Assembly: GCA_964549095.1 (NCBI GenBank)
Contig: CAZJUL010000001.1
Span: 1 to 32,589 of the forward strand
Length of the DNA: 32,589 nucleotides
Direction: 5' to 3'
DNA from: an uncultured Elusimicrobiaceae bacterium
GTDB lineage: Bacteria; Elusimicrobiota; Elusimicrobia; Elusimicrobiales; UBA9959
Shown: positions 7,514-19,749 of the stretch, piece by piece
How positions within the stretch are numbered: the first letter of the stretch is position 1
Layout: each line of letters opens with the position of its first letter
Program-made: the position numbers and the translations under genes
Notes under the pieces: generated by a model
The model's input: only the letters and a program-made list of their open reading frames with translations
Told to the model about the DNA's origin: nothing
Databases searched by the model: none

Positions 7514-8704
7514 CTACTGGGCGGGCACGGCCGCGGGGGTTTCCGGCGCTGCCGGCGCGGGGACTTCTGCCGGCTGTGCAGCCGGAGCTTCCGGCGCGGC
7601 GGGCTGAGCCGCCGGCGCGGATTCGACAGGCTGCGCGGGGGCCGCAGGGGCGGCTGTTTCCGGCACAACGGGCTGCGGGACCGGCGCTACAGGCGCTTCC
7701 ACAGCCGCGGACACGGGGGCTTGCACCGGCTGCGCCACAGGCGCGGGTTCCGCCGGCTGCTGAACGGGAACGGCCGCCTCTACCGGCGCGGCGGCCCTCA
7801 CGCTCCTGCCCCACATATAGGTCACGCTGAAGCGGTGCGTGGAGCCCAGGTCCTTGAACGGCGCGAAAGCGTAATCGAAGTTGAAGTTGTTGTGTATGTA
7901 GCCCAGCCCGGCCGCTATCCCGGACCCGTCGTCGTTCCGCCCGTTGTACCCAAGCCTTACCGGGAACTTATTGGCTACTATGACTTCCGCGCCCAGCAAA
8001 GCAGACGCGTCATCGCCGCGCTCTTTCACCATATCCAGCGCCAGCAGGGCGGGCAGCCCTTTGACGCTGAAGCTGTAGGCCGCACCCGCGCGCAGGTTGA
8101 GCGGCATATTCTCGTCGTCGCCCTGGAATTTCACCGTTGAGCCGAGGTTCTGCAGGGCCGCGCCGAAAGTGAAACCTTCCATCCCGGCGGGCGAGATCAT
8201 AGCCCCCAGGTCCAGGCCCAGGCCCTGCGCCGATTCCCCGGCGATGGACTCCCTGATGAGCTTCAGGCCGGCCCCCGCCCAGACGCCGGGCTTGAGCTCG
8301 CGCCCGTAGCCCAGGCCTATGGCCAGGTCGGTCAGGTTCACCTCGCCCAGCCCCGTGCCGGACGGGTTGGAGATGGTGGTGTTCGGCGCGCCGCCGAAGT
8401 CCAGGTAGTTGAAGCTGGCGCCCCAGCCCTTGGGCGAGGCGTAAGCCAGGTATTCCTGCGTTATGTCCTGGAAATACTGGTTATGCATGAAGGTGACCTG
8501 CCTGTCGGCCACCTTTCCCAGCCCGGCCGGGTTATAGTGCAGCGCGTTGGCGTCCGCGGCCAAAGCCGTGTACGCCCCGCCCAGCCCTACGCCCCGGGCG
8601 CCGGAATCCAGGAACAGGAAGTTGAACGGATCGGCGCCGGCCGAACCGGCGCAGGCCGGAGCGGCGAAACCAGCGAGCAGTATAAGTATGTTAAGTTTTT
8701 TCAT
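7514..8704 (-). CDS. Outer-membrane beta-barrel protein, PorV/PorQ-like, with a ~95-aa Pro/Ala-rich C-terminal tail
   Basis: The track start (GVG-type GTG at 8713) is trimmed to ATG 8704, which gives MKKLNILILLAGFAAPACAGS. The block FLFLDSGARGVGLGGAYTALAADANALHYNPAGLG resembles the N-terminal signature of PorV-type barrels. The rest has alternating G/aromatic strands and ends in FSVTYMW, followed by PAPVAQPVQAP... low complexity. The start lies 5 nt after the stop of the giant CTD-bearing gene. Confidence 0.65.
   Translation of the reverse strand: MKKLNILILLAGFAAPACAGSAGADPFNFLFLDSGARGVGLGGAYTALAADANALHYNPAGLGKVADRQVTFMHNQYFQDITQEYLAYASPKGWGASFNYLDFGGAPNTTISNPSGTGLGEVNLTDLAIGLGYGRELKPGVWAGAGLKLIRESIAGESAQGLGLDLGAMISPAGMEGFTFGAALQNLGSTVKFQGDDENMPLNLRAGAAYSFSVKGLPALLALDMVKERGDDASALLGAEVIVANKFPVRLGYNGRNDDGSGIAAGLGYIHNNFNFDYAFAPFKDLGSTHRFSVTYMWGRSVRAAAPVEAAVPVQQPAEPAPVAQPVQAPVSAAVEAPVAPVPQPVVPETAAPAAPAQPVESAPAAQPAAPEAPAAQPAEVPAPAAPETPAAVPAQ

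Positions 8705-19749: not shown

Follow-up and report, generated by a model that had tools for sequence, protein, structure and literature searches.

The cargo gene and the barrel gene

We analyzed a stretch of 32,589 nucleotides (hereafter the window; positions 1 to 32,589 of contig CAZJUL010000001.1, assembly GCA_964549095.1) from an uncultured Elusimicrobiaceae bacterium, in which a gene for a giant repeat protein is followed directly by a gene for a predicted outer membrane β-barrel. A preliminary description of this locus, made from the letters of the DNA, had proposed that the giant protein ends in a C-terminal domain (CTD) like those of type IX secretion system (T9SS) substrates, and that it forms an unusual, self-contained operon with a dedicated PorV-like shuttle. 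The ~3,680-aa open reading frame (ORF) and the C- and N-terminal sequences quoted in that description were present where it had placed them: the giant ORF spans 8710-19764 on the minus strand and has 3,684 aa if it starts at a TTG. A start at the ATG at 19749, with GGAGA 4 nt upstream, is more likely; it gives a protein of 3,679 aa and agrees with the end coordinate of the preliminary description. The downstream ORF spans 7514-8713 on the same strand. Exactly 5 nt separate its ATG (8704) from the giant TGA (8712-8710), a spacing that had been noted correctly; an alternative GTG start at 8713 would overlap the giant stop by 4 nt. The barrel gene is translationally coupled to the cargo gene, and a palindromic hairpin (Table 1) marks the end of the two-gene unit.

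The barrel matched the NCBIfam model for the PorV/PorQ family (NF033709) at 166.7 bits (163.9 bits in the genome scan), with a cut-off of 90, over model positions 4-324 of 326. Its scores were 115.2 bits for the PorQ model (NF033711, cut-off 220), 57.4 bits for the PorV model (NF033710, cut-off 250) and 26.9 bits for the PorP/SprF model (TIGR03519, cut-off 90.55). The sole FadL-type NCBIfam match of the barrel reached 15.8 bits against a cut-off of 970, and Pfam Toluene_X gave no match to it at E <= 0.01. Residues 30-103 were matched by PF03687 (Treponema UPF0164) at 39.2 bits, and a phmmer search of the barrel against the PDB returned only PorV of Flavobacterium johnsoniae (6h3i_F, E 1.3e-6).

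Structure prediction agreed with the family assignment. The AlphaFold2 (AF2) model of the barrel, built from an alignment of 77 homologues, had a predicted local distance difference test score (pLDDT) of 83.8 overall and of >90 over residues 30-300, and contained 14 long strands. In a Foldseek search with this model, PorV 8gl6_F ranked first (E 1.2e-14, template modeling scores 0.60/0.64) and 6h3i_F came next, both from T9SS translocon structures, while FadL, TodX and TbuX formed a second tier at E 1e-8 to 1e-9. Because of these profile scores and fold matches, the barrel is a member of the PorV/PorQ family that is nearer to PorQ than to PorV and is an orthologue of neither; the earlier label of a PorV-like barrel thus holds at the level of the family. 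NCBI lists such barrels as 'PorV/PorQ family protein [Elusimicrobia]'. In the model, the disordered C-terminal tail of the barrel (residues 302-399) should be periplasmic if the number of strands is even.

We also examined the end of the giant protein with profiles for T9SS sorting domains. TIGR04183 matched it at 19.5 bits in the full-length protein, at 23.4 bits when the last 100 aa were used alone and at 25.6 bits in the genome scan, with a cut-off of 23. FlgD_ig matched the last ~75 residues in the full-length protein at 22.8 bits (cut-off 27), and the C-terminus of the PorZ model matched the CTD at 42.9 bits in the full-length protein and at 47.9 bits in the last 100 aa alone. An AF2 model of the CTD, for which the 29 CTDs of this genome served as the alignment, gave a pLDDT of 81 and showed six strands folded into an immunoglobulin (Ig)-like β-sandwich at the extreme C-terminus. 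Its first match in the PDB was PorZ (5m11, E 5.5e-6, 26% identity), followed by both chains of PorU (6za2) and then by FlgD and the substrate CTDs of SprA-PorV complexes (8glk_D, 8gl8_D and 8gl6_D).

Previous studies defined two functional motifs in T9SS CTDs: the β3-β4 loop, in which the sole conserved residue is a Gly that is essential in RgpB, and the C-terminal strand with its conserved Lys (PMC11285876). In the CTD alignment of this genome, the Gly (G48) of an IY-x-x-x-G-x-LV motif was invariant in all 29 sequences, and a C-terminal K-x-x-V-x-R was conserved. TIGR04183 was matched by 24 of these 29 CTDs at E <= 0.01. PorZ and PorU are T9SS proteins from which the CTD is not removed (PMC11285876), and the tail of the giant, as modeled, appears to be a type A-like T9SS CTD that is closest to these uncleaved domains. 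The proposal of a T9SS-type CTD was thus supported by its fold, with a profile score of the last 100 aa that lies at the cut-off.

The passenger part of the giant was resolved by a Pfam scan, in which Kelch_1 had 26 matching stretches (762 bits) and fn3 scored 240 bits, and by motif mapping, which gave five Kelch propellers and 19-20 fibronectin type III (FN3) domains, very close to the five propellers and about 20 FN3 domains counted before. The motif PTSVYFDE recurs at residues 136, 620, 1085, 1551 and 2019, and LTPNTQY recurs at residues 488, 954, 1420, 1894 and 2360. N-terminal strands of an FN3 domain (PTSVYFDE...) precede each propeller, and C-terminal strands (LTPNTQYxFKAKAR...STYTLA) follow it. 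Each of the five super-modules thus appears to consist of a six-bladed Kelch propeller inserted into a split FN3 domain, with one intact FN3 domain after it. The tandem array of ~9 FN3 domains that follows is a probable stalk. The Kelch units resemble propellers of the NanM type (153 bits), and the Kelch/FN3 part may serve in adhesion or in glycan binding.

Table 1. Features of the cargo-barrel locus, in positions of the window
Feature	Position	Strand	Basis or remark
Giant cargo gene	8710..19749	-	Stop TGA 8712-8710; 3,679 aa from ATG 19749 (3,684 from TTG 19764)
Sec-type signal peptide MRAITLSRSVKSLDRFLARPLVALFAAGLLIAGLSAEGQA	19630..19749	-	Basic n-region, hydrophobic core, AxA-like end; read by eye from the translation
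Five super-modules, ~466 aa each (1.4 kb)	12589..19359	-	Motif positions and Kelch_1 matches
Tandem array of ~9 FN3 domains, residues ~2383-3194	10183..12618	-	Pfam and motif mapping
β-rich region of ~390 aa, from stalk to CTD	9013..10182	-	No confident family; free of Pfam domains up to the FlgD_ig tail
C-terminal sorting/anchor domain, last 100 aa, T9SS type A-like	8713..9012	-	Profile scores and AF2 model
Barrel gene, PorV/PorQ family	7514..8704	-	396 aa from ATG 8704; NF033709 166.7 bits
Conserved N-terminal plug segment and 14-stranded β-barrel, residues 26-301	7811..8638	-	AF2 model
Pro/Ala-rich C-terminal tail of the barrel, 98 aa, predicted disordered	7517..7810	-	Translation; AF2 pLDDT 46-65
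Upstream intergenic region	19750..19910	-	Behind the AAA_28 gene, GC-rich hairpin with T-run; AT-rich stretch (TATAATTAAATATATATAATAG) next; read by eye
Palindromic hairpin, 14-bp stem	7464..7494	.	Between the barrel gene and the convergent gene 5992-7443

The co-directional gene upstream of the pair (19911-20576) encodes an AAA_28 ATPase (60 bits), and the other neighbors include RecQ, nitroreductase, diacylglycerol kinase-like and ClpP-like genes. None of them is related to the cargo or the barrel, and the two genes form a stand-alone unit. The RecQ of the contig is 77-79% identical to that of many Elusimicrobiota and Elusimicrobiales metagenome-assembled genomes (MAGs), which places the contig in that group. 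Elsewhere in the window, positions 3154-4740 (minus strand) encode a protein of 528 aa, in which a long N-terminal region is followed by a ClpP-fold domain at residues ~298-442 (PF00574, 68.7 bits); its nearest NCBIfam models are ClpP-like proteases of phage head maturation. The GC content drops from ~0.62 to ~0.42 at 23527-32589, where all listed ORFs of at least 250 aa lie on the minus strand, a region that bears no relation to the pair.

Pairing of CTD and barrel genes across the genome and the phylum

The assembly comprises 3.34 Mb in 584 contigs and is 87% complete. It contains 55 matches to the PorV/PorQ family, 26 of them above cut-off, and 23 matches to Por_Secre_tail, of which 19 are above cut-off. 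Hidden Markov models (HMMs) built from the locus itself recovered 52 barrel ORFs and 31 CTD ORFs. Among the 35 barrels with enough upstream sequence, 24 directly follow a CTD-bearing gene on the same strand; conversely, a same-strand barrel is the next gene for 24 of the 29 CTD genes with room downstream. The barrel domain begins a median of ~100 nt after the cargo stop, and 4-nt overlaps occur in several pairs. By our own estimate, chance would give far less than one such pair for ~31 CTD genes in a genome of ~3,000 genes, so that this one-to-one adjacency is far beyond chance.

The same arrangement was found across the phylum. PorV/PorQ-family matches were present in 119 of 121 sampled genomes, with tens of candidates per genome in free-living lineages and 0-6 in small gut or endosymbiont genomes. 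In a sample of 40 barrels from 26 genomes and many families, 26 had the end of a CTD gene <700 nt upstream. Far from being unusual, as had been suggested for the locus in the window, the pair is therefore the rule in the genome (24/35 barrels) and in the phylum (26/40). Furthermore, barrel and CTD distances were correlated (Spearman 0.52, 46 pairs), a value reached by none of 2,000 permutations, and the same was seen within this genome alone. Such co-variation shows joint evolution of the unit and not physical contact between its parts.

We also observed two flavors of CTD in the genome. The majority is type A-like, and a minority carries the type B hallmark TPNGDGxND. TIGR04131, the type B model, was matched by 8 of the 29 CTDs; that of the giant was not among them and lacks the TPNGDG motif as well. 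The two type-B-linked barrels that were scanned (contigs C113 and C94) reached only 53-67 bits with the PorV-family model and 29-31 bits over most of the PorP/SprF model. They are a distinct, PorP/SprF-leaning subtype and carry long tetratricopeptide repeat (TPR) tails. There is thus a second class of pairs, with type B tails and PorP-leaning barrels, so that a single genome contains cassettes of both kinds, type A-like and type B-like. The type B pairs on contigs C113, C122, C94 and C146 (loci L171 and L172) have barrels of 570-680 aa with long C-terminal TPR arrays.

Many barrels of this genome and of its relatives carry additional C-terminal modules of the TPR, OmpA, SPOR, thrombospondin type 3 (TSP3) or LpoB-like kind. 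The tails of paralogous barrels on contigs C202, C65 and C329 (loci L165, L170 and L163) contain thrombospondin type 3 repeats, CsgG/LpoB-like domains and DUF2914 besides TPR, and barrel orthologues in other genomes have tails with OmpA, SPOR or HEAT modules.

Apparent fusions were also seen. A frame on contig C284 (2-3628, minus strand) that joins a CTD and a barrel was rejected as a true fusion: the signal peptide of the barrel is kept and the end of the CTD is garbled, features that suggest a frameshift or the loss of a stop codon. In a MAG of the Fibrobacteraceae (G121), two PorV-family matches above cut-off (C24:14569-15486 and C35:2940-3818) lie inside frames of 1,537 and 1,337 aa. These frames may represent fusions of barrels with large additional domains, here in a genuine lineage of the Fibrobacteres-Chlorobi-Bacteroidetes (FCB) superphylum.

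Other T9SS-type components in Elusimicrobiota

An outer membrane protein of 1,781 aa (contig C35:2006-7351; loci L151/L152), which has a signal peptide and an aromatic C-terminal residue, matched the SprA model TIGR04189 at 128.3 bits (E 1.7e-37; cut-off 200). The model was matched by all 13 of the phylum orthologues tested, and a profile made from these 13 orthologues matched only SprA in the whole PDB (E 1.9e-31, in 3 stretches). No match came from a Pfam scan of the protein or from phmmer with its sequence alone against the PDB. Judged by these profiles, the protein is a clear, distant SprA/Sov homologue and not a certified equivalog. Of 121 phylum genomes, 115 have its gene, each in a single copy. 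Five of the six genomes that lack it have 0-2 barrel matches (two have none), and the sixth, G042, has six.

The SprA-like gene lies divergently beside lptF-lptG (PF03739, 194-219 bits) in 8 of 9 genomes (loci L151-L160). A gene for a ComF-like protein with a double zinc ribbon and a phosphoribosyltransferase domain comes after it. This synteny raised the question of whether the SprA-like barrel might take the place of LptD, a reading that we did not retain. The LptD model PF04453 gave nothing above cut-off in 41 phylum genomes, a search in which it matched just 2 of 14 controls and in which weak LptD-like frames of ~700 aa were present.

For the remaining T9SS parts the searches were largely negative. 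The PorU catalytic domain had no match in the genome, where NF033707 was matched only by its C-terminal CTD part (positions 956-1095); because the genome is 87% complete, a PorU could still have been missed. With only this CTD part of the PorU model found, removal of the CTD by PorU or attachment to anionic lipopolysaccharide (A-LPS) received no support from the genome. The GldL, GldM and GldN profiles gave no match in the genome, and GldK gave a weak match of its FGE domain (77.8 bits, model positions 219-404, cut-off 350). GldM was found in none of 61 phylum genomes, and the same HMM was also blank in both positive controls, a Gemmatimonadota MAG and a MAG of the Fibrobacteraceae in which SprA (464 bits) and PorV-family genes are present. 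Because this control was blank, the negative results for motor, ring and sortase are to be read as 'not detected with Bacteroidota-trained models' rather than as 'absent'.

Thus, T9SS-type parts do occur in the genome, namely a distant SprA homologue, ~50 PorV/Q-like barrels and ~30 CTD proteins. The preliminary description had named three outcomes that would speak against it (a barrel scoring better as FadL, a CTD failing its profiles and a genome devoid of T9SS parts), and none of them was observed.

Proposed surface anchoring by cognate barrels and its alternatives

In model organisms, porU adjoins porV, and PorZ and PorU are each held on the surface via their own partner barrel. In Porphyromonas gingivalis, these two CTD proteins share an attachment complex with the 14-stranded barrels PorQ and PorV (PMC9143113). 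The locus resembles these systems in combining an Ig-like CTD of the uncleaved type with a PorV/PorQ-family barrel, here known from genes and models. It differs from them in several respects: there is one barrel per cargo, with ~24 pairs per genome and arbitrary passengers, whereas the canonical proteins are two dedicated subunits of the machinery; the barrel lies below the equivalog cut-offs of PorQ (220) and PorV (250); neither a PorU sortase domain nor a step of A-LPS attachment was detected; and the host belongs to the Elusimicrobiota, outside the FCB superphylum.

A second parallel is offered by SprB-SprF of F. johnsoniae and PG1035-PorP-PorE of P. gingivalis, in which multiple paralogous FadL-type barrels each lie beside one CTD cargo and are specific for it. 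PorE is a lipoprotein with TPR and OmpA domains that ties PorP to peptidoglycan (PMC9143113), and many Elusimicrobiota barrels have TPR, OmpA or SPOR modules as part of the same protein. Unlike these type B systems, the locus has a type A-like CTD, and its barrel belongs to the PorV/PorQ family (166.7 bits) and not to PorP/SprF (26.9). PorZ-PorQ, PorU-PorV, and SprB-SprF or PG1035-PorP are thought to anchor their proteins by a barrel-bound CTD in the absence of a sortase (PMC9143113; PMC11285876). FadL/TodX and Treponema UPF0164 (PF03687) share the fold class, a 14-stranded barrel with an N-terminal plug, but FadL profiles are at noise level here, and genomic coupling to a CTD cargo is not a FadL-type feature.

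We consider it probable that the two genes are a surface-display cassette, in which the CTD keeps the cargo non-covalently on its cognate PorQ-like barrel after export. The cargo, a fiber of ~3,680 aa, would cross the inner membrane by Sec, and its CTD would target it to the outer membrane, most likely via the single SprA/Sov-like pore of the phylum. The cognate 14-stranded barrel, which as a PorV/PorQ-family protein would be expected to bind the CTD of a T9SS-exported protein, would then capture this CTD and keep it bound. No sortase step would be involved, and the cargo would stay anchored on the surface with its propellers away from the cell, at the far end of the FN3 stalk. The predicted periplasmic tail of the barrel may link the complex to the wall or to partners in the periplasm, in the way that PorE secures PorP. 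Of the dedicated cargo-plus-shuttle operon proposed before, the coupled pair therefore stands, and 'anchor' fits better than 'shuttle' because the barrel resembles PorQ more than PorV. The pair is probably not self-contained, since an SprA-like pore exists.

Several observations weigh against this reading. The CTD scores only at the curated cut-off, and Ig domains of the FlgD type match it too. Eleven of the 35 barrels lack an upstream CTD gene, and joint duplication could by itself make CTD and barrel co-vary. With 128 bits, the SprA-like protein falls short of the equivalog cut-off of 200; it is also ~600 aa shorter than SprA, and G042 has barrels and no detected SprA-like gene. Because lptF-lptG adjoins that gene in 8 of 9 genomes, its role could be in envelope biogenesis instead. 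Finally, the PorL/M motor, the PorK/N ring and PorU were undetected; if they are truly absent, the source of energy for export is unexplained.

Among the alternatives, we regard it as unlikely that the barrel is a transient PorV-type shuttle that takes the cargo from the SprA-like pore, with the CTD then removed and the cargo released or attached by an unrecognised sortase. PorV is indeed the best structural match of the barrel, substrate CTDs bound to SprA-PorV are among the matches of the CTD model, and the negative results for PorU and the motor are weak, given that the GldM HMM was blank in the Fibrobacteraceae MAG with SprA and PorV-family genes. Yet a general shuttle needs one copy, as in Bacteroidota, whereas here each cargo has its own barrel, which co-varies with the CTD. 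The PorQ score also exceeds the PorV score, the CTD is nearest to the uncleaved PorZ/PorU type, and only the CTD part of the PorU model was matched in the genome. Somewhat less likely still is a self-sufficient two-partner exporter, similar to an autotransporter or to TpsA/TpsB, that acts perhaps with the β-barrel assembly machinery and independently of the SprA-like protein. A plugged, 14-stranded barrel of the FadL type has no known protein-conducting role, and PorV, PorQ and PorP are binders and not pores (PMC9143113). The cargo would have to pass as ~3,680 aa of folded-domain repeats, and the SprA-like gene is kept in 115/121 genomes and is absent from both barrel-free genomes. These points stand against the translationally coupled 1:1 pairs, the undetected T9SS motor, ring and sortase, the six barrel matches of G042, which has no detected SprA-like gene, and the synteny of the SprA-like gene with lptFG rather than with cargo genes, all of which such an exporter would accommodate.

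We consider it very improbable that the adjacency has no functional meaning, the barrel being a FadL/TodX-like importer of hydrophobic compounds, the tail an ordinary FlgD-type Ig domain and the cargo exported otherwise. Such a coincidence would have to be repeated in ~24 adjacent pairs of one genome and in 26/40 sampled barrels across the phylum, and it leaves aside the co-variation of CTD and barrel and the conserved Gly and Lys motifs that are specific to the T9SS. The barrel does have significant second-tier matches to FadL/TodX structures, weak Toluene_X matches occur in some paralogous barrels, and FlgD profiles and structures match the CTD, but the score of the PorV/PorQ model is ten times that of any FadL model.

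Beyond the single locus, the anchoring of each cargo on a cognate barrel leads to a wider and more tentative proposal, to which we give somewhat less than an even chance: that Elusimicrobiota have a stripped-down type IX-like pathway, with one SprA-like pore and a private PorQ/PorP-like barrel for each CTD cargo, no PorU sortase and possibly no PorLM/KN motor-ring. According to reviews, the FCB superphylum is the only group with T9SS genes (PMC11285876), and the T9SS was detected only in Bacteroidetes (PMC4793230); our literature searches on PorV, the T9SS and type IX secretion in the phylum turned up no paper dealing with T9SS-type genes of the Elusimicrobiota. The logic of one barrel per cargo is already known for type B CTDs and PorP-like barrels in Flavobacterium; what is new here is its use with type A-like CTDs and PorV/Q-type barrels, genome-wide and in a non-FCB phylum.

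SprA-, PorV/PorQ- and CTD-type genes thus occur across the phylum Elusimicrobiota, where cargo and putative anchor form modular cassettes. The ~24 cognate CTD-barrel pairs of one genome are a natural library for studying CTD recognition, and the cassette could provide a portable two-gene module for surface display. The system may also offer a view of a minimal or ancestral T9SS: if the proposed pathway is true, 'one barrel per cargo' may be the ancestral logic of T9SS, of which PorU-PorV, PorZ-PorQ and SprB-SprF in Bacteroidota would be remnants. For the little-studied Elusimicrobiota themselves, such cassettes may be the way in which giant adhesins and enzymes are mounted on the cell surface.

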